A DNA stretch of 64,000 bases, taken from NCBI GenBank assembly GCA_049297495.1, contig JBAQUL010000005.1, forward strand, positions 3,868 to 67,867, given 5' to 3'. Position numbers and translations under genes: made by a program. Below are positions 2,996 to 10,679 of this stretch, piece after piece (positions within the stretch are counted from its first letter, which is position 1; every line of letters starts with the position of its first letter). This stretch comes from Candidatus Moraniibacteriota bacterium. Lineage in GTDB: Bacteria; Patescibacteriota; Minisyncoccia; Moranbacterales; UBA2206. Under the pieces are notes generated by a model. The model saw only the letters and a program-made list of their open reading frames with translations. It was not told where the DNA came from and ran no database searches.

Positions 2996-4141
2996 CTAAA
3001 CCAAATAGCCAGCAACTGGAACATGAAAAATTTTTTGCCATATCTCCTGCTTGATAAATCTTAATCTTTCGAGCTGAAATCTACTTACCGCAAGAATGTT
3101 TTGAAAGTTTATGTCTTCAACCACGAAAACACTTTCTCCAAAACTATCGACATGCGATGCTAAATTTCCAGCAACGTATTTCGCTGAATCAATGCTCATC
3201 CTTGGCAGATGTATTTCCGTCTGTTCAAAAATGAAACATTGACCAACTTTTGAAATGAAGCCTGCATCAGCGTCGACTGGTCTCGGTAAAACTGAGAAAA
3301 TCAATGTCACCAGAATAGCTGCTACAAAAGTATGCCGTGGTCGAAGTCCTTCTTGCAAAAGCATTCGACACCAAACCGAGATTGCCAATCTGCTTTTGGC
3401 AAATTGTTCAATCTTACCAACTTCCCTTTCGGAAAGATAAGTAAAATAATTTTCTTTTGTTTGGCGGTAACGTGCTTCGGCAATAAATTCACGCCGACCA
3501 TTACCAAACCATTCAAAAAACACTTTAGTGAGATAGAACGGATGCGCCACGACGCGCCAAACAAAACTTAGTGGTCTAGGGATCCCTTTTTTCTTCCTCT
3601 CATCAATTGCCCAAATTAGATACAGACAGATTGTTGGAAAAAGGTTTTTGAAATAAAACCAGACAAGCCATAAAAAAAATTTCTCCCAGCTTACCCGTTT
3701 TTCATTTTGCTTCTCACCACAAAGCCCAGACGCAATATCTACTTCTGGCCCATATATATCTCGAGCCAGAGAAATATCACTGCTTGAATAATATCCTCTT
3801 TTGATGCCATCCCACATGAGTTGGCTCAACGGATCAATCCAAAACTTGCCTTGAATCCGAATGCCCAAAGTTCTTTCTTTGTTGCCAACGGCAATCAGGT
3901 CTTCAAAGTAGTTATAGGGAGAATAAATCGCTCCCTGTTTGTCCCGCTCCTGCGCCAAAGCTATTCGATGTTTGGCGAAGCCTTCTGCCTCCTTTCTTTT
4001 GGATTCCGCCATAGAAACAGGCATTTCGCCCCGATCAATCACTCCGCGAACCCCCTGGATGATGCCAGTATTCAAGAAAATAGCAACTATCACCAAAAAT
4101 TTCAAAAATCCTGGCCTATATAAGCTTTTCAACGACCGCAT
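2996..4141 (-). CDS. hypothetical protein with an N-terminal membrane anchor
   Basis: 381-aa ORF with one N-terminal TM segment and several internal hydrophobic stretches; no motif recognised. Confidence 0.45.
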   Translation of the reverse strand: MRSLKSLYRPGFLKFLVIVAIFLNTGIIQGVRGVIDRGEMPVSMAESKRKEAEGFAKHRIALAQERDKQGAIYSPYNYFEDLIAVGNKERTLGIRIQGKFWIDPLSQLMWDGIKRGYYSSSDISLARDIYGPEVDIASGLCGEKQNEKRVSWEKFFLWLVWFYFKNLFPTICLYLIWAIDERKKKGIPRPLSFVWRVVAHPFYLTKVFFEWFGNGRREFIAEARYRQTKENYFTYLSEREVGKIEQFAKSRLAISVWCRMLLQEGLRPRHTFVAAILVTLIFSVLPRPVDADAGFISKVGQCFIFEQTEIHLPRMSIDSAKYVAGNLASHVDSFGESVFVVEDINFQNILAVSRFQLERLRFIKQEIWQKIFHVPVAGYLV

Positions 4142-6639: not shown

Positions 6640-6763
6640 TCCAATATTCCTCTGTTTTATTATATCACAGTTAGAATATAATTTTACACATGAAAAATAC
6701 GACCCATAAGAGCCGTATAGTTTGCGGAGACGGTCCCGCCGCAGCGGGATGACCTATTAACAA

Positions 6764-6840
6764 TGGCGGGGACGGCCGGACTCGAACCGGTGACCTACTG
6801 CGTGACAGGCAGTCGCTCTAACCAACTGAGCTACGCCCCC
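6764..6840 (-). tRNA. tRNA-Asp (GTC), CCA encoded
   Basis: The reverse complement folds as a cloverleaf: GGGGGCG/TA/GCTC-AGTTGGTTA-GAGC/G/ACTGC-CTGTCAC-GCAGT/AGGTC/ACCGG-TTCGAGT-CCGGC/CGTCCCC/GCCA. The anticodon loop CTGTCAC gives anticodon GTC. Confidence 0.85.
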
Positions 6841-6866
6841 AATGTATTATTCTATTTTAAATTTAC

Positions 6867-6922
6867 ACCTACTGCGTGGCAGTCCGCCGGCTGGCGGATC
6901 TAACCAACTGAGCTACGCCCCC
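6867..6922 (-). pseudogene. tRNA fragment: 5' half of the tRNA-Asp sequence fused to a GC hairpin, with no T-arm
   Basis: The reverse complement starts GGGGGCGTAGCTCAGTTGGTTAGA (identical to the tRNA-Asp 5' part), then the hairpin TCCGCCAGCCGGCGGA, then CTGCCACGCAGTAGGT. There is no T-arm or 3' acceptor strand. The same hairpin type recurs at 10543-10558. Confidence 0.6.
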
Positions 6923-7001
6923 AAATTGTATTATGTATCTGGTATTTAGTATCAAGTATTCATACAACATACTAGATACCTTATACTAAATACTATTTTT
7001 G

Positions 7002-7075
7002 TAGCAGGAGTGAGACTCGAACTCACGACCTCAACGTTATGAGTGTTGCGCTCTAACCGGCTGAGCTATCCTGCC
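7002..7075 (-). tRNA. tRNA with CAT anticodon (elongator Met or Ile2-type)
   Basis: Reverse complement GGCAGGA/TA/GCTC-AGCCGGTTA-GAGC/.../CTCATAA/.../GTGAG-TTCGAGT-CTCAC/TCCTGCT/A. C11:G24 indicates an elongator tRNA. One 31:39 mismatch was seen. Confidence 0.7.
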
Positions 7076-7091
7076 ATTTTAATCAATCATT

Positions 7092-7769
7092 TCAAGCAGC
7101 TTCGCCGAGAGCTTTCATCAAACCCATAATCTCATAGAACAATTCCGAACTTTTTGCGATTCTTATGCACAGCGTTCCATAATGCTGAAAATGATTTTCG
7201 TAAACTTTTTTATTTTCTGTTTTTATTAAAATCGGCTTTCTGAACTGCTTAACCGATACTCCTGTTATATTTGACCAATATCTATCAACTTCGCGCAATC
7301 TTTCCTTGTGAATTTCGTTTATTGCAACATGCATGGCAAATCTTTCATTTGGAATATGCAACGCTTCCCTAAACCATCTCATGGCAAATTTAACAATCAG
7401 CTGATCTGAATTATAGAATCTTACCCTTGGATCTCTCTTGCTCCCCTCTCCCCAATATAAAGCAAGTCCAGCAATAAGCAGCTCCCTCTTTTTCAGAGCA
7501 ACAATCTCTTTTCTTCCTTTTTCTATGTACTGTTCTATTTTTTGTAGTTTCCTGTTTTTTTGAGACAACGCTCCTTTCATGCGCCCTTCGTACCCGCCCC
7601 TCACCATTTTAACATGCAATTTTTTAATTTGTGCAACAGATAAGATAATATCCGAACACCAAACACTAACAGAACTCTTAGATACCTCGAGTTCTTTTGC
7701 GATGTCTTTGATGCTATAGCCTTTTTTTCTCAGGCCACGTGCTGCTACTATTTCTTTTGACTTTGCCAT
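7092..7769 (-). CDS. LAGLIDADG-family homing endonuclease with an N-terminal HTH
   Basis: 225 aa. N-terminal HTH (GYSIKDIAKELEVSKSSVSVW) followed by the motif LIAGLALYWGEGSKR, which is the LAGLIDADG signature. It sits between tRNA genes. Confidence 0.75.
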   Translation of the reverse strand: MAKSKEIVAARGLRKKGYSIKDIAKELEVSKSSVSVWCSDIILSVAQIKKLHVKMVRGGYEGRMKGALSQKNRKLQKIEQYIEKGRKEIVALKKRELLIAGLALYWGEGSKRDPRVRFYNSDQLIVKFAMRWFREALHIPNERFAMHVAINEIHKERLREVDRYWSNITGVSVKQFRKPILIKTENKKVYENHFQHYGTLCIRIAKSSELFYEIMGLMKALGEAA

Positions 7770-7835
7770 GGACTCCCCCTATATGGTTATACTATAATTA
7801 TACGGGAAGTTCTAAAATCAATCAACCTTATTATG

Positions 7836-7907
7836 TTGCGGGACCAGGATTCGAACCTGGAACCTTCTGGTTATGAGCCAGACGAGCTGCCATTGCTCCA
7901 TCCCGCT
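7836..7907 (-). tRNA. tRNA-Met (CAT), probably the initiator tRNA-fMet
   Basis: Reverse complement AGCGGGA/TG/GAGC-AATGGCA-GCTC/G/TCTGG-CTCATAA-CCAGA/AGGTT/CCAGG-TTCGAAT-CCTGG/TCCCGCA/A. The 1:72 A-A mismatch and A11:U24 are initiator hallmarks. The anticodon stem lacks the 3xGC run, so the initiator call is tentative. Confidence 0.7.
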
Positions 7908-7969
7908 ATCTTTTTGAACTATTCCCTATTCTAGCTCAAAAAATCCGAAACGTCAATTATTCTCAAAAA

Positions 7970-8509
7970 CTAATCGAACACCAAGAAAAATCTTAAGAAT
8001 TCCTCATAACAATCAAATGTCTTTAGGGCCTCTTCTCGAGTGAGCACAAAGCTATCATCATGAATAATGCGATTCCGAATCTCATGTGCACGTCGCAATT
8101 CTTCGATGTTCTCAATTTGACCGGGAGTGATATTGTCCAAGCGCTCAGTCATATTTTCACCCTTATAATTCATCTTAGCAATAAGATCCTCCACAATCTT
8201 ATCTGCTTCAATAATCGCCACCTTATACTCCGATTCGTTCTTGCTATTGAACCTCCTTTTCACTTTAGCCCACTTCACACGCAACTTTCCTTTCCGATAT
8301 GCGAGCTCTGGCGGAATATTCATTCCCACAAGTGTATCACGAATATCAGCGCCCAGGCCACGTTGTTTGAGCATCAATGCAAGATCAATAAACATCACAA
8401 TCACATACACTTCCAAGAAAAATTTCAAAAAAGAAAAAGTGAGCGAAGTGTAAAAAGCTTTTGCCAGTAACAATATTCCGGTGATAAAATTTTCCAAAAA
8501 AACGTCCAT
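7970..8509 (-). CDS. membrane-anchored hypothetical protein with a C-terminal R-x4-H (HEPN-like) motif
   Basis: 179 aa with an N-terminal hydrophobic region of two helices; the C-terminal segment ...ELRRAHEIRNRIIHDDSF contains RNRIIH, matching the HEPN Rx4-6H pattern. Confidence 0.35.
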   Translation of the reverse strand: MDVFLENFITGILLLAKAFYTSLTFSFLKFFLEVYVIVMFIDLALMLKQRGLGADIRDTLVGMNIPPELAYRKGKLRVKWAKVKRRFNSKNESEYKVAIIEADKIVEDLIAKMNYKGENMTERLDNITPGQIENIEELRRAHEIRNRIIHDDSFVLTREEALKTFDCYEEFLRFFLVFD

Positions 8510-10030: not shown

Positions 10031-10209
10031 CCCCTTCGCCCCTCAGGAGAAGCCTGCCTGCCGGTAGGCAGGGTGGCCCCGCCACGGCGGGGATGAGGGC
10101 AAGGGCGTTTGATATATTTATTACTATCTTATATACAACAATTTTTCCTTTAAATAAAACCCTTGCCCTCACCTGTCCTTCGGACATCCTCTCCCAAGGG
10201 GAGAGGAGA
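10031..10209. repeat. GC-rich composite palindromic element (copy B) lying between gatC and gatA
   Basis: Shares with copy A the blocks CCCCTTCGCCCCTCAGGAGAAG, CCTGCCTGCCGGTAGGCAGG, GTGGCCCCGCCACGGCGGGGATGAGGGCAAGGGCG, an AT-rich loop, and CCCTTGCCCTCACCTGTC, then the hairpins GTCCTTCGGAC and CCTCTCCCAAGGGGAGAGG. It fills the 221-bp gap between the gatC stop (10233) and the gatA start (10011). Confidence 0.6.
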
Positions 10210-10232
10210 CAGTTTTTATTGACTACTGAAAA

Positions 10233-10514
10233 CTATAATACTGACTTCACCTTATCATACCCATTTTTACTCTCCGGAAACAATTCAACAATTTTCTCTT
10301 TATTTAAAAAATCTTCCATCCGATCTTCTCTAGAAACATCATTCATGCCTGTAATATGCGCGGTTGGCAAAACTCCCGCCACATCCACCTCATCAAGCTG
10401 TTTTATCCAATCCAAAATCGACGACAAATCATGGGAAAATTTATCCATTTCTTTTTCGGTAATCCCGATTCTAGCTAAATTCGCGATGTGCTTTACTTCG
10501 TCCTTTGATAACAT
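10233..10514 (-). CDS. gatC: Asp-tRNA(Asn)/Glu-tRNA(Gln) amidotransferase subunit C
   Basis: 93 aa, MLSKDEVKHIANLARIGITEKE..., a typical GatC N-terminus. Confidence 0.85.
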   Translation of the reverse strand: MLSKDEVKHIANLARIGITEKEMDKFSHDLSSILDWIKQLDEVDVAGVLPTAHITGMNDVSREDRMEDFLNKEKIVELFPESKNGYDKVKSVL

Positions 10515-10679
10515 AAACGCAATAAATTAAAATTTCAATCCGCCAGCTGGCGGACAAATGCCAAATAAATTTCAAAGCTCAAAATTCAAAAACTTTGTCA
10601 TTTTAATTTTGGGCTTGATTTGACACCTGCCTGCCGGTAGGCAAGGTTAGAAATTTGGTTTTTGACTTTTTAAAAATCA

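Follow-up and report, generated by a model that had tools for sequence, protein, structure and literature searches.

A tRNA operon of a Candidatus Moraniibacteriota bacterium probably colonized by selfish nuclease DNA: a homing-endonuclease-type ORF and a palindrome-disrupted pseudo-tRNA-Asp

Results

Organization of the tRNA Operon

The window, i.e., the whole stretch of 64,000 nt analyzed here, contains a compact tRNA locus whose features, all on the reverse strand, are listed in Table 1. The three tRNA genes that the original prediction had placed around an endonuclease-like ORF, one for Asp (GTC) and two with a CAT anticodon, were recovered by ARAGORN and Rfam at the predicted positions, with scores of 63.6–66.3 bits. 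As read from the sequence, the features would form a single transcription unit, in the order P1, initiator-type tRNA, P2, ORF, elongator-type tRNA-CAT, pseudo-tRNA-Asp, tRNA-Asp and terminator. P1 would be the promoter of this operon, and an equivalent TTGAC..TAGAAT/TATAAT precedes the same initiator-type tRNA in relatives; the hairpins downstream of tRNA-Asp are the probable end of the operon, with a similar hairpin found 3′ of tRNA-Asp in L110 and L187 (L-numbers designate the loci compared).

Table 1. Features of the tRNA operon and of the ORF that it contains.
Feature	Position	Strand	Basis or remarks
Promoter-like P1, TTGACG-17-TAGAAT	7928..7956	-	5′ of initiator-type tRNA; consensus scan 10/12
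Initiator-type tRNA-CAT, CCA not encoded	7835..7907	-	ARAGORN; Rfam tRNA 63.6 bits
Promoter-like P2 of the ORF: -35 TTGATT (7820-7825), 17-nt spacer, -10 TATAAT (7797-7802)	7797..7825	-	Consensus scan 10/12
ORF 5′ hairpin: 5′ arm 7804-7810, 3′ arm 7772-7778	7772..7810	-	Fold of window sequence
225-aa ORF	7092..7769	-	N-terminal HTH and one LAGLIDADG-like domain
HTH of the ORF, approx. residues 6-40	7650-7754	-	Pfam HTH matches
LAGLIDADG-like domain of the ORF, approx. residues 62-225	7092-7586	-	Family alignment, I-DmoI profile match
Motif AGLALYWGEGSK with invariant E108	7437-7472	-	ORF family alignment
Elongator-type tRNA-CAT	7001..7075	-	ARAGORN; Rfam 65.9 bits
AT-rich imperfect hairpin spacer, tRNA-CAT to pseudo-tRNA	6925..7000	-	Folding; inverted repeat I2
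Pseudo-tRNA-Asp, 56 nt	6867..6922	-	Repeat alignment to tRNA-Asp
26-nt spacer, native tRNA-Asp 5′ flank (TTTAAAATAGAATAATAC, -10-like)	6841..6866	-	Compared with L011
Intact tRNA-Asp(GTC), CCA encoded	6764..6840	-	ARAGORN; Rfam 66.3 bits
GC hairpin TCCCGCTGCGGCGGGA (6734-6749), then terminator-like hairpin and T run (6697-6718)	6697..6749	-	

The initiator-type tRNA carries all three of the peculiarities ascribed to it beforehand. Its 1:72 mismatch is A1xA72 rather than the usual C1xA72, a form kept in Moranbacteria-type relatives, whereas most other Parcubacteria have C1xA72; the D stem (GAGC/GCTC) includes A11:U24; and the three consecutive G:C pairs (29–31:39–41) were not found in this tRNA (7835–7907), whose anticodon stem has U29:A41, G30:C40 and G31:C39, that is, two of the three usual G:C pairs. 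Since most relatives among the Patescibacteria show the same pattern with two G:C pairs, U29:A41 is a trait of the lineage and not a defect.

The elongator-type tRNA-CAT begins 16 nt past the ORF stop and has G1-U72, A73 and A31xC39. We favor Met over Ile2 for this partner tRNA only because its linkage to the ORF holds in Microgenomates loci with tRNA-Ile(UAU). The AT-rich spacer that follows it folds into a hairpin of -19.8 kcal/mol (z = -3.84), with none of 200 shuffles being equally stable; in L093, which lacks the ORF, the spacer between tRNA-fMet and tRNA-Met is filled by a loosely similar AT-rich inverted repeat. Rfam returned no family matching this hairpin, the pseudo-tRNA fragment or the GC hairpins.

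A Pseudo-tRNA-Asp Disrupted by a GC Palindrome

The pseudo-tRNA-Asp consists of tRNA-Asp positions 1–23, a 16-bp GC palindrome in the place of positions 24–31 (hairpin TCCGCCAGCCGGCGGA, 6883–6898), and then positions 32–47. It starts with an exact 26-nt repeat of the 5′ end of tRNA-Asp (6899–6924 = 6817–6842), including 2 nt of upstream flank, and ends with CTGCCACGCAGTAGGT (16 nt), equivalent to tRNA-Asp 32–47 with one substitution that changes the anticodon from GTC to GCC. The repeated 5′ end and the GC hairpin had both been recognized in the original prediction, which overlooked the 16 nt beyond the hairpin; as these match tRNA-Asp 32–47, the palindrome replaces positions 24–31 and does not terminate the copy. 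The fragment has neither a T arm nor a 3′ acceptor strand, and in stability its fold does not exceed those of shuffled sequences (z = -0.26). A search for the palindrome gave three matches vs. 0.02 expected. ARAGORN and the Rfam tRNA model (E up to 10) did not call a tRNA in 6867–6922, with or without an intron; given this silence, and as both anatomy and fold disagree with it, we rejected an intron-containing or split tRNA.

The 26 nt separating the fragment from the intact gene are the native 5′ flank of tRNA-Asp: L011 carries no pseudo-copy and has this flank ahead of its tRNA-Asp. Fragment and spacer make up an 82-nt unit, which is repeated in tandem in L093 and L106. This retention of the native flank fits poorly with the deletion of an endonuclease gene from between pseudo-copy and tRNA-Asp, a scenario that we discarded, and better with a tandem partial duplication; the fragment would thus be a defunct copy, in tandem, of part of tRNA-Asp, made up of its 5′ flank and positions 1–47. 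Homologs occupy the corresponding place in L015, L089, L093, L106 and L110, in variable copy number and with a further interruption in L089; the fragment is decayed in L009 and L012, and absent from L011, L184, L186, L187 and most other relatives. Over 401 nt at the fragment, the window has 100% identity to an independent Logan assembly, and sequence variants were found in other, unrelated metagenomes.

The Lesion Recurs in Copies of Other tRNAs

The same lesion at positions 24–31 was found in copies of tRNA-Asp, tRNA-His (L091, L095, L098, L100, L107, and L108) and tRNA-Lys (L104). Six of the seven tRNA-His and tRNA-Lys loci directly abut a GIY-YIG ORF, as do around half of all the palindrome-disrupted instances; L055 contains a pseudo-tRNA-Asp together with GC hairpins and GIY-YIG, and in L089 and L093 the fragment and a GIY-YIG gene lie within one operon. 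L189 has tandem pseudo-initiator units with a related palindrome, TCCGCCGCGGCGGA, and no endonuclease gene. Palindromes are also present outside tRNAs, in the window (10539–10554), apparently in frame in a coding sequence of L096, and as GC-hairpin arrays in L079 and L094; in viral contigs there were 55 matches, mostly due to chance in GC-rich coding DNA and none of them at a tRNA junction. The palindrome-disrupted class is not tied to the family of the 225-aa ORF. The palindrome was also considered, and rejected, as a binding or cleavage site of the ORF protein: CGCCAGCNGGCG appears in only 8 of 88 ORF loci, mostly elsewhere in the locus.

The scars of homing or recombination proposed in the original prediction are borne out to the extent that partial tRNA copies disrupted by a palindrome recur, the fragment being one of them, and flank GIY-YIG genes in other genomes. 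In our preferred reading, the fragment would be collateral damage left when endonucleases break tRNA genes and the breaks are repaired, and the neighboring ORF would not be its maker. Its link to endonucleases is one of association only, because a search of the window for a GIY-YIG gene found none and the native flank of the intact tRNA-Asp is preserved. Another origin, which we find rather improbable, is that the pseudo-tRNA-Asp is unrelated to endonucleases, a duplicate from slippage or unequal crossover that was struck later by a mobile REP- or MITE-like GC palindrome. The 82-nt unit with its native flank, amplified in L093 and L106, agrees with such an origin, as do the fragments without an adjoining endonuclease gene (window, L015 and L098), the identical or related palindromes outside tRNAs (10539–10554, L096, L079, and L094) and the pseudo-initiator units of L189. 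It accounts less well for a replacement at identical coordinates (24–31) in three tRNA species, for the adjoining of around half of the instances to GIY-YIG ORFs, otherwise rare in the loci examined, or for the operons of L089 and L093 holding a GIY-YIG gene in addition to the fragment.

Short mobile GC-rich palindromes are known as Rickettsia palindromic elements, GC clusters and double-hairpin elements in the mitochondria of yeast and Allomyces, and REP sequences; they occur in AT-rich genomes, in intergenic DNA, in RNA genes and sometimes in frame in coding sequences, and the organellar ones are often near endonuclease genes. The palindromes from CPR bacteria are likewise GC-rich hairpins scattered in AT-rich genomes, but they differ in being only 14–20 bp long, identical across diverged genomes, and precisely swapped for tRNA positions 24–31. 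We know of no transposase or mechanism for them, and infer their mode of arrival in the tRNA copies. Tentatively, and with considerable doubt on our part, TCCGCCAGCTGGCGGA and its relatives might be agents or footprints of an undescribed mobility process of CPR bacteria, one that hits tRNA copies (24–31, D arm, anticodon loop), seeds tandem pseudo-tRNA units and is coupled to small GIY-YIG nucleases consisting only of the catalytic domain (e.g., through cruciform substrates or through a disruption of the cleavage site that confers immunity). Together with the HTH-LAGLIDADG-like family, they would make up a tRNA-gene-specific selfish ecosystem of CPR bacteria and large phages.

The 225-aa ORF Joins an HTH to a Divergent LAGLIDADG-Like Domain

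The ORF had been described as an HTH-LAGLIDADG protein. Pfam matches to HTH models were present but weak (HTH_7, E = 4.5e-5), although the HTH is the best-scoring part of the protein; Pfam LAGLIDADG_1/2/3, NCBIfam and PHROGs gave no match to a nuclease model at E ≤ 1, either for the ORF product or for any of 40 members of its family, nor did the Pfam WhiA models match the ORF. The expected Pfam LAGLIDADG match was therefore not obtained, and it was comparison of profiles that recovered this domain: a family profile built from CPR members only retrieved I-DmoI from PDB sequences with E = 0.0035, and a profile including CPR and viral members matched domain 2 of I-DmoI with E = 1.3e-6, every non-HTH match with E < 0.5 in the PDB profile search being I-DmoI. 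In the alignment, LYWGEGSK from the ORF corresponds to LYVAEGDK from I-DmoI, with E108 opposite the catalytic E117.

The family has a constant length and 25 invariant columns in its alignment; residues L104, W106, E108 and G109 of AGLALYWGEGSK are invariant among 40 CPR members, and one viral member has GDG instead of GEG, i.e., D at the position of E108. A distant viral relative matched Pfam LAGLIDADG_3 with E = 6e-4, below the cut-off. AF2 models (pLDDT 91–93) predict an alpha-beta-beta-alpha-beta-beta-alpha-like core, for which Foldseek retrieved I-DmoI with a probability of 0.98–1.0 and E of 0.04–0.1, but with weak TM scores (0.30–0.42), and unrelated alpha/beta folds score alike. Kinship with the LAGLIDADG_3 genes that other loci carry 5′ of tRNA-Asp was rejected, as hhalign detected nothing shared with the ORF family beyond the HTH. 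These results support the ORF as a protein with an HTH and what appears to be one divergent LAGLIDADG domain, from a family not filed before; having one motif, it presumably works as a homodimer. It would be a free-standing gene of the homing-endonuclease type, with cleavage and homing as its putative activities.

A Hairpin Covers the Ribosome-Binding Site of the ORF

The 3′ arm of the hairpin located 5′ of the ORF is the Shine-Dalgarno region, GGGGGAG, whereas its 5′ arm lies inside the spacer of P2, leaving the -10 box in the loop. At 13 related loci, TTGATA-17-TATAAT is kept in position and the consensus stem comprises 11 bp with four compensatory pairs. Pairing along the stem reached 88.8% of cells in these 13 loci, compared with 78.8 ± 2.2 in shuffled alignments (0/500) and 35–55% in slid controls, and covariation was 0.453 vs. 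0.276 in shuffles (0/500). The arrangement suggests a regulatory logic in which read-through RNA from the tRNA promoter would fold the hairpin and hide the ribosome-binding site of the ORF, while RNA from P2 would begin inside the hairpin and leave the site open. [quoted passage not shown]

The ORF Family Inhabits the 5′ Flank of tRNA Genes and Is Sporadic

We found more than 457 homologs of about 225 aa, and relatives of the ORF in at least 498 species-level genomes of Parcubacteria and Microgenomates. Of 79 genome loci, 76 have a tRNA-CAT on the same strand that begins -42 to +77 nt from the stop of the ORF; the offset is exactly -10 in 33 of them, where the stop codon of the ORF (TAG) is U8-A9-G10 of the tRNA. 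Among the relatives from viral contigs, 17 of 18 are within tRNA clusters, beside assorted tRNA species, and in L047 the ORF is on the opposite side of tRNA-Met. The niche of the family is directly 5′ of tRNA genes, with an elongator-type tRNA-CAT as the almost invariable partner in Patescibacteria.

Synteny was compared, as had been proposed, with relatives, among them some sampled through the neighboring 179-aa gene. Seven relatives contain the same tRNAs but not the ORF (L089, L093, L184, L186, L187, L188, and L189). Upstream of the operon they maintain the neighborhood found in the window, with the 179-aa gene and gatA, as well as ligA and gatC in those loci long enough to include them. 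DNA identity is only ~75% where measured (L089 and L093), so that loss and gain of the ORF are indistinguishable. In these relatives the slot of the ORF is empty or occupied by GIY-YIG genes: in L188, one sits in exactly the ORF slot and overlaps tRNA-Met, and in L089 and L093 such genes run into the initiator tRNA. In L026 and L072, the position just 5′ of tRNA-Asp is taken by LAGLIDADG_3 genes with two motifs (verified with Pfam); similar two-motif ORFs, identified by the motif alone, are present in L050, L058 and L060. Decayed copies of the ORF, with an in-frame stop or truncated, were found in L009 and L083, the other 78 of 80 being intact. The ORF is, then, dispensable and sporadic. Its mobility is supported by comparison, through the association with tRNAs, the absence from seven relatives, the T4-like hairpin and, weakly at 2 of 80, the decayed copies, all of which point to a putatively mobile gene.

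Could the ORF instead be a domesticated, vertically inherited host protein, e.g., a DNA-binding regulator of the tRNA operon like WhiA, linked to tRNAs for co-regulation? WhiA is a domesticated regulator and a stable core gene, with two degenerate LAGLIDADG domains that lack the catalytic acids and a C-terminal HTH. As in WhiA, LAGLIDADG-type and HTH domains are joined in one bacterial protein, but in the ORF the HTH is N-terminal, the single LAGLIDADG-like domain keeps its acid, and the gene is sporadic. The very wide spread of the family, its constant length and invariant columns, the 78 intact copies with always the same neighbor, an identity that declines smoothly with taxonomic distance, and an HTH that scores best would all be expected from a host protein. 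Indeed, we initially favored a domesticated core gene for its wide spread and its 76/79 linkage, and dropped it as the leading reading, there being no informative syntenic locus with the ORF among the relatives sampled through the 179-aa gene. We now consider a host protein unlikely, in view of the seven syntenic relatives without the ORF, the GIY-YIG gene in its slot in L188, the conserved acidic residue of the LAGLIDADG motif, the viral-contig relatives beside other tRNA species, the ORF on the other flank of tRNA-Met in L047, and a hairpin over the ribosome-binding site that is typical of endonuclease genes.

Discussion

Beyond what was observed directly, namely the anatomy of the locus, the distribution of the family, its presence and absence, the covariation of the hairpin and the recurrence of the lesion, our reading is that this Moraniibacteriota tRNA operon has probably been colonized by selfish nuclease DNA, in the form of a homing-endonuclease-type ORF and an endonuclease-damaged pseudo-tRNA-Asp. 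Judging from the relatives compared, selfish nuclease genes appear to land repeatedly at tRNA genes of this kind, both in these bacteria and in large phages.

We consider it very unlikely that selection maintains the fragment as a functional RNA, for example as a decoy, a signal for processing, or an insulator that separates tRNA-Met from tRNA-Asp. Its place and its hairpin are kept in diverged genomes (window, L015, L089, L093, L106, and L110), and the window retains the 26-nt identity to the neighboring tRNA, as selection would predict; yet the fragment is missing from L011, L184, L186, L187 and most relatives, it is decayed in L009 and L012, interrupted in L089 and variable in copy number, and it shows neither a fold distinct from shuffles (z = -0.26) nor a match to an Rfam family. 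That the duplication is an assembly artifact of this metagenome-assembled genome is hardly credible: short repeats can fool assemblers and the Logan contig L008 stops near the repeat, but the independent assembly shows no difference along 401 nt, and sequence variants with this structure occur in several unrelated metagenomes.

Free-standing homing endonucleases at tRNA genes are already known, and the colonizing ORF would be a further variety of them. SegB from phage T4 is a free-standing GIY-YIG homing endonuclease from a tRNA gene cluster, with its target in the tRNA region; it has its own promoter, and an RNA hairpin masks its ribosome-binding site on read-through transcripts (PMC2988022). 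Like segB, the ORF is a free-standing nuclease-type gene between tRNA genes, with a promoter inside a hairpin that hides the ribosome-binding site, while the GIY-YIG genes of the L088-type loci L089, L093, L104 and L188 belong to the same enzyme class as SegB. Conversely, the ORF product is LAGLIDADG-like with an HTH, its host is a cellular CPR bacterium and its gene abuts or overlaps the 5′ end of a tRNA. The best and only non-HTH sequence match of the ORF is I-DmoI, with which the motif helix and the strands that follow it can be aligned. The ORF departs from I-DmoI and other LAGLIDADG enzymes in having one motif and an extra N-terminal HTH, in not being encoded within an intron or intein, and in falling under every Pfam LAGLIDADG threshold.

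[quoted passage not shown] The ORF product resembles them in its single LAGLIDADG-like domain, in the group of organisms and in having a highly conserved RNA gene as presumed target. However, the I-ShaI group resides inside rRNA genes (introns or insertion sequences) and is caught by standard LAGLIDADG models, whereas the family of the ORF, which goes unmentioned in that survey (PMC11270868), is free-standing, flanks tRNA genes and has an HTH.

The proteins of the ORF family, from hundreds of species-level genomes as well as large phage-like contigs, are now labeled as hypothetical or as XRE-type regulators; our analyses offer for them a likely role as divergent HTH-LAGLIDADG endonucleases specialized on the flanks of tRNA genes. 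Their presumed targets being universally conserved tRNA genes, they may constitute possible new sequence-specific nucleases. For annotation, pseudo-tRNAs and ORFs that end within tRNAs complicate the calling of tRNAs in metagenome-assembled genomes, and the swap of a palindrome at fixed tRNA coordinates may point to a new mechanism of repair or mobility. Between genomes of close synteny, a given tRNA flank can hold different endonucleases or none. Small, streamlined CPR genomes would tolerate a fast-turnover hot spot of selfish nucleases in an essential tRNA operon, which may bear on the exchange of DNA between CPR lineages and their phages.

Anatomy of the tRNA operon

In the source organism, a member of Candidatus Moraniibacteriota (CPR/Patescibacteria) by the names of its homologues, the operon lies entirely on the minus strand and runs from a promoter-like site through an initiator-type tRNA-CAT (fMet), a 225-aa ORF, an elongator-type tRNA-CAT, a tRNA-Asp fragment and tRNA-Asp to a terminator-like hairpin. 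ARAGORN and Rfam agreed on the three tRNAs of the original prediction. The elongator-type tRNA-CAT may be tRNA-Met, as it is called here, or tRNA-Ile2; its 31:39 pair is non-Watson-Crick (A-C in the window, A-G or U-G in many relatives), and its G1-U72 is also present in Moranbacteria. The 3′ CCA is encoded in tRNA-Asp (6764–6766) and in neither tRNA-CAT gene of the operon (7001, 7835).

Features of the tRNA operon and associated repeats in the window
Feature	Position	Strand	Evidence or remark
Promoter-like site	7928–7956	minus	sequence scan
Initiator-type tRNA-CAT	7835–7907	minus	ARAGORN, Rfam
Second promoter-like site (P2)	7797–7825	minus	
225-aa ORF	7092–7769	minus	
Elongator-type tRNA-CAT	7001–7075	minus	ARAGORN, Rfam
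AT-rich hairpin, 76 nt	6925–7000	minus	z = −3.8
Pseudo-tRNA-Asp, 56 nt	6867–6922	minus	not called as tRNA by ARAGORN or Rfam
Spacer, 26 nt, between pseudo-tRNA-Asp and tRNA-Asp		minus	
tRNA-Asp	6764–6840	minus	ARAGORN, Rfam
GC hairpin and terminator-like hairpin	6697–6749	minus	
179-aa gene	7970–8509	minus	
9-nt direct repeat TGATTGATT	7816–7824; 7081–7089	minus	
~190-nt intergenic repeat	about 895–1085; about 10045–10235	minus	
YCCSSC-N4-GSSGGR hairpins (six)	926–941; 6734–6749; 6883–6898; 10057–10072; 10077–10092; 10539–10554		

The direct repeat TGATTGATT brackets the ORF cassette, with one copy overlapping the −35 box of P2, the ORF's own promoter-like site, and the other downstream of the ORF stop, before tRNA-CAT; a chance origin, a target duplication and a microhomology used in excision are all possible. 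The adjoining 179-aa gene, conserved in Moranbacteria and used as synteny anchor, had as its sole match a faint Swt1-like HEPN (E = 0.015).

In the initiator-type tRNA, A1xA72, A11:U24 and an anticodon stem short of the usual three G:C pairs had been read from the sequence, and all are confirmed; the stem has only two such pairs. A1xA72 is common to Moranbacteria-type relatives. Among the Patescibacteria compared (loci L001–L088), Moranbacteria and some others have A at position 1, most other Parcubacteria C and a few U, and only two deviate from A at position 72, so that the 1:72 mismatch is nearly always retained; likewise, most initiator tRNAs have only two G:C pairs at 29–31:39–41. By this comparison, the three traits are lineage features and not damage.

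The ORF product and its family

Pfam gave only weak HTH matches for the window protein (HTH_7, E = 4.5e-5), in agreement with the predicted HTH. LAGLIDADG Pfam models matched neither this protein nor any of 40 aligned homologues at E ≤ 1, and searches of NCBIfam and PHROGs with the ORF protein returned nothing further. The homologues form a family of more than 457 proteins of ~225 aa, with 50–69% identity, whose conserved core comprises AGLALYWGEGSK, NSD, INxIHKxR, YWS and KNKKxYxN..HYGT, and in which E108 is invariant. Domain 2 of I-DmoI was matched by the single ORF sequence at E = 0.04, and I-DmoI by the profile of 40 members at E = 0.0035 and by a profile including distant relatives from viral contigs at E = 1.3e-6; the LYWGEGsK motif of the family aligns to LYVAEGDK of I-DmoI, the site of catalytic E117. 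Apart from the HTH matches, the wider family profile found nothing but I-DmoI below E = 0.5, and one viral relative almost reached Pfam LAGLIDADG_3 (E = 6e-4). Support from structure is weaker: confident AlphaFold models (pLDDT 91–93) matched I-DmoI in Foldseek with a probability of 0.98–1.0, but at a TM of only 0.3–0.4, and unrelated alpha/beta folds scored similarly. We conclude from the profile comparisons that the predicted protein comprises an HTH and one divergent LAGLIDADG-type domain; the LAGLIDADG domain originally proposed is recovered by the family profile, but not by the Pfam LAGLIDADG models.

With one genome scanned per species, ORF relatives turned up in at least 498 genomes of Parcubacteria and Microgenomates. 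Among 79 loci with enough sequence downstream of the ORF, 76 have a tRNA-CAT on the same strand, whose start falls between −42 and +77 nt relative to the stop codon of the ORF; in 33 loci this offset equals −10, the TAG stop of the ORF being U8-A9-G10 of the tRNA. In the same set, an initiator tRNA lies just upstream in 38 loci and tRNA-Asp downstream in 48, and the protein genes flanking the ORF vary. Another 18 distant full-length relatives (23–33% identity) are on IMG/VR contigs of 25–497 kb, labelled viral although some may be misclassified, and 17 of them are housed in tRNA gene clusters, beside assorted tRNA species. Together with the linkage to tRNA-CAT, this makes residence at tRNA genes the constant feature of the family. 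Truncated ORF copies were found in 2 of 80 cases (L009 and L083), and in L047 the ORF is placed after tRNA-Met.

A conserved hairpin precedes the ORF

The ORF follows TTGATA-17-TATAAT in 13 Moranbacteria-type loci, where an 11-bp stem has the promoter spacer as its 5′ arm and spans the Shine-Dalgarno sequence with its 3′ arm, leaving the −10 box in the loop. The stem is paired in 88.8% of cells, versus 78.8 ± 2.2 in shuffles (0/500), with a covariation score of 0.453 versus 0.276 (0/500), and slid controls reached 35–55% pairing. Compensatory changes occur at four stem pairs, and G-U pairs on the sense strand only; in the window the stem is reduced to 7 bp. Read-through transcripts from the tRNA promoter would mask the ribosome-binding site of the ORF, and transcripts from its own promoter would begin within the hairpin and leave the site exposed. 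The same arrangement has been described for T4 I-TevI, I-TevII, I-TevIII and segB and for Aeh1 mobE (PMC2988022), and by analogy we infer a two-promoter hairpin control of ORF expression.

Different endonuclease genes occupy the same tRNA flanks

Relatives were sampled by way of the adjacent 179-aa gene, which avoids a bias toward the ORF. Five loci (L184, L186, L187, L188, and L189) share the ligA-gatC-gatA-179aa-tRNA layout of the window, and the ORF was not found in any of them, nor in the syntenic contigs L089 and L093, both from one metagenome and located through the palindrome described below (~75% DNA identity). Loci L184 and L186 are clean operons, with fMet, Met and Asp 43–103 nt apart. 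In L188, the slot that the ORF takes in the window, immediately 5′ of tRNA-Met, contains a GIY-YIG gene recognized by Pfam that overlaps the tRNA. Contigs L089 and L093 contain a GIY-YIG gene (PF01541, E = 1e-12) running into the initiator tRNA, preceded in L093 by a pseudo-initiator tRNA with its anticodon loop split by the GC palindrome CCTGCCTGCCGGCAGGCAGG (reverse, about 583–690). The window itself holds no GIY-YIG gene. In L187 the tRNA-Met gene is another allele, and behind it lies a 3′ pseudo-fragment of tRNA-Met of the window type, broken in the T loop (3306–3425).

Elsewhere in Patescibacteria, the spacer from tRNA-Met to tRNA-Asp is filled by other endonuclease genes. These include Pfam-confirmed two-motif LAGLIDADG_3 genes just 5′ of tRNA-Asp in L026, with an N-terminal HTH, and L072; similar two-motif ORFs, recognized by motifs only, in L050, L058 (both frameshifted) and L060; and a GIY-YIG gene with a pseudo-tRNA-Asp ahead of it in L055. 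The pattern among the loci compared is the one expected of free-standing homing endonuclease genes in competition for tRNA flanks and not the one of a fixed host gene, with gain and loss indistinguishable at ~75% DNA identity.

Small endonuclease ORFs routinely end inside the next tRNA or pseudo-tRNA (L093, L089, L104, L188, L095, L100, L107, L108, and L060), with TAG at positions 8–10, TAG in the D loop (GGTTAGA) or TAA in the initiator anticodon loop, so RNase P processing would remove their stop codons.

Palindrome-bearing pseudo-tRNAs

The 5′ repeat of tRNA-Asp joined to a GC hairpin that had been noticed in the fragment is exact over 26 nt, including two flanking bases, but the copy does not end there: after the hairpin TCCGCCAGCCGGCGGA it resumes with tRNA-Asp positions 32–47, with one anticodon substitution, so the palindrome replaces positions 24–31. 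The fragment is not an intact or intron-bearing tRNA for either ARAGORN or Rfam (E up to 10), and over 401 nt the sequence agrees fully with that of an independent assembly from the same organism. Homologous elements lie between tRNA-Met and tRNA-Asp in L015, L089, L093 (at least two tandem units), L106 and L110, with decayed remnants in L009 and L012; L011 lacks the pseudo-tRNA-Asp, yet keeps the native 5′ flank of tRNA-Asp. Since pseudo-tRNA-Asp and its flank form an 82-nt unit in the window, and given this retained flank, a tandem partial duplication is the simplest way for it to have arisen.

Scanning metagenomes for the junction TTAGA+palindrome+C yielded 22 loci. One 16-bp perfect palindrome, TCCGCCAGCTGGCGGA, replaces positions 24–31 in copies of tRNA-Asp, tRNA-His (L091, L095, L098, L100, L107, and L108), tRNA-Lys (L104) and an unidentified tRNA-like sequence (L090, L103, and L105). 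These copies are full length or cut at varying points of the 3′ end, and an intact copy of the same tRNA adjoins. In L091 and L104 a GIY-YIG ORF starts immediately downstream of the pseudo-copy and stops at, or within, the intact tRNA, in L104 again with the −10 TAG overlap, while in L095, L100, L107 and L108 the GIY-YIG ORF enters a full-length palindrome-bearing tRNA-His copy. Locus L189 (3085–3210) has two tandem 81-nt pseudo-initiator units with the related palindrome TCCGCCGCGGCGGA in the D arm, and no endonuclease gene. Across these loci the lesion recurs, is position-specific and shows a statistical link with GIY-YIG genes; the HTH-LAGLIDADG-like ORF is not generally associated with the palindrome (8 of 88 loci).

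Related GC hairpins also occur outside tRNAs. The window is enriched in them, with six perfect YCCSSC-N4-GSSGGR hairpins (GC-rich, 6-bp stem, 4-nt loop), against ~0.9 in shuffles even when every kind of GC hairpin is counted. That upstream of gatC (TCCGCCAGCTGGCGGA, 10539–10554) is the perfect-palindrome form of the pseudo-tRNA-Asp hairpin, and motifs CGCCAGCTGGCG and CCTGCCTACCGGCAGGCAGG were found again in the distant Patescibacteria loci L079 and L088. In L096 (about 756–777, minus) the 16-bp palindrome is apparently in frame in a putative methylthioadenosine/purine nucleoside phosphorylase (MTAP)-like coding sequence (GGSGFYDLLDPPAGGLQEHEIETPFG), recalling the Rickettsia palindromic elements, which insert into genes. 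Both copies of the ~190-nt repeat, which is AT-rich in the centre and has structured, GC-rich ends (..GGTGAGGGCAAGGG.. / ..CCCTTGCCCTCATCCCCGCCGYGGCGGGGCCACC..), are immediately upstream of a gene start, in one case that of gatA; the repeat may be MITE-like or carry a promoter.

Discussion

Anatomy, specificity for tRNA flanks, sporadic presence, alternative endonucleases in the same slots, covarying hairpin and recurrent palindrome lesion are all directly visible in the loci. From these sequences we infer cleavage by the ORF product, homing and a break-repair origin of the duplicates. The putative nuclease would dimerise and cut tRNA-Met regions lacking the ORF, and the cleaved allele would acquire the ORF, perhaps along with the tRNA beside it, through double-strand-break repair. 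Clean loss of the ORF would be hindered by its overlap with the essential tRNA and by the supply of a promoter. Partial tRNA duplicates would arise as tRNA genes go through cycles of break and repair, with GIY-YIG enzymes as the probable drivers, and would become fixed once a GC palindrome disrupts them.

T4 segB is likewise a free-standing endonuclease gene in a tRNA cluster. Single-domain LAGLIDADG enzymes are known from CPR, as with I-ShaI, but in rRNA insertions (PMC11270868). Our literature search found no description of an HTH-LAGLIDADG-like family, of endonuclease turnover at tRNA flanks or of palindrome-replaced pseudo-tRNAs. Three aspects appear to be new. One is a large HTH and LAGLIDADG-like family, missed by standard models and specialised on tRNA 5′ flanks in CPR genomes and in large phage-like contigs; another is that endonuclease genes of different classes turn over at the same tRNA flanks; and the third is the pseudo-tRNAs in which a palindrome replaces part of the tRNA.
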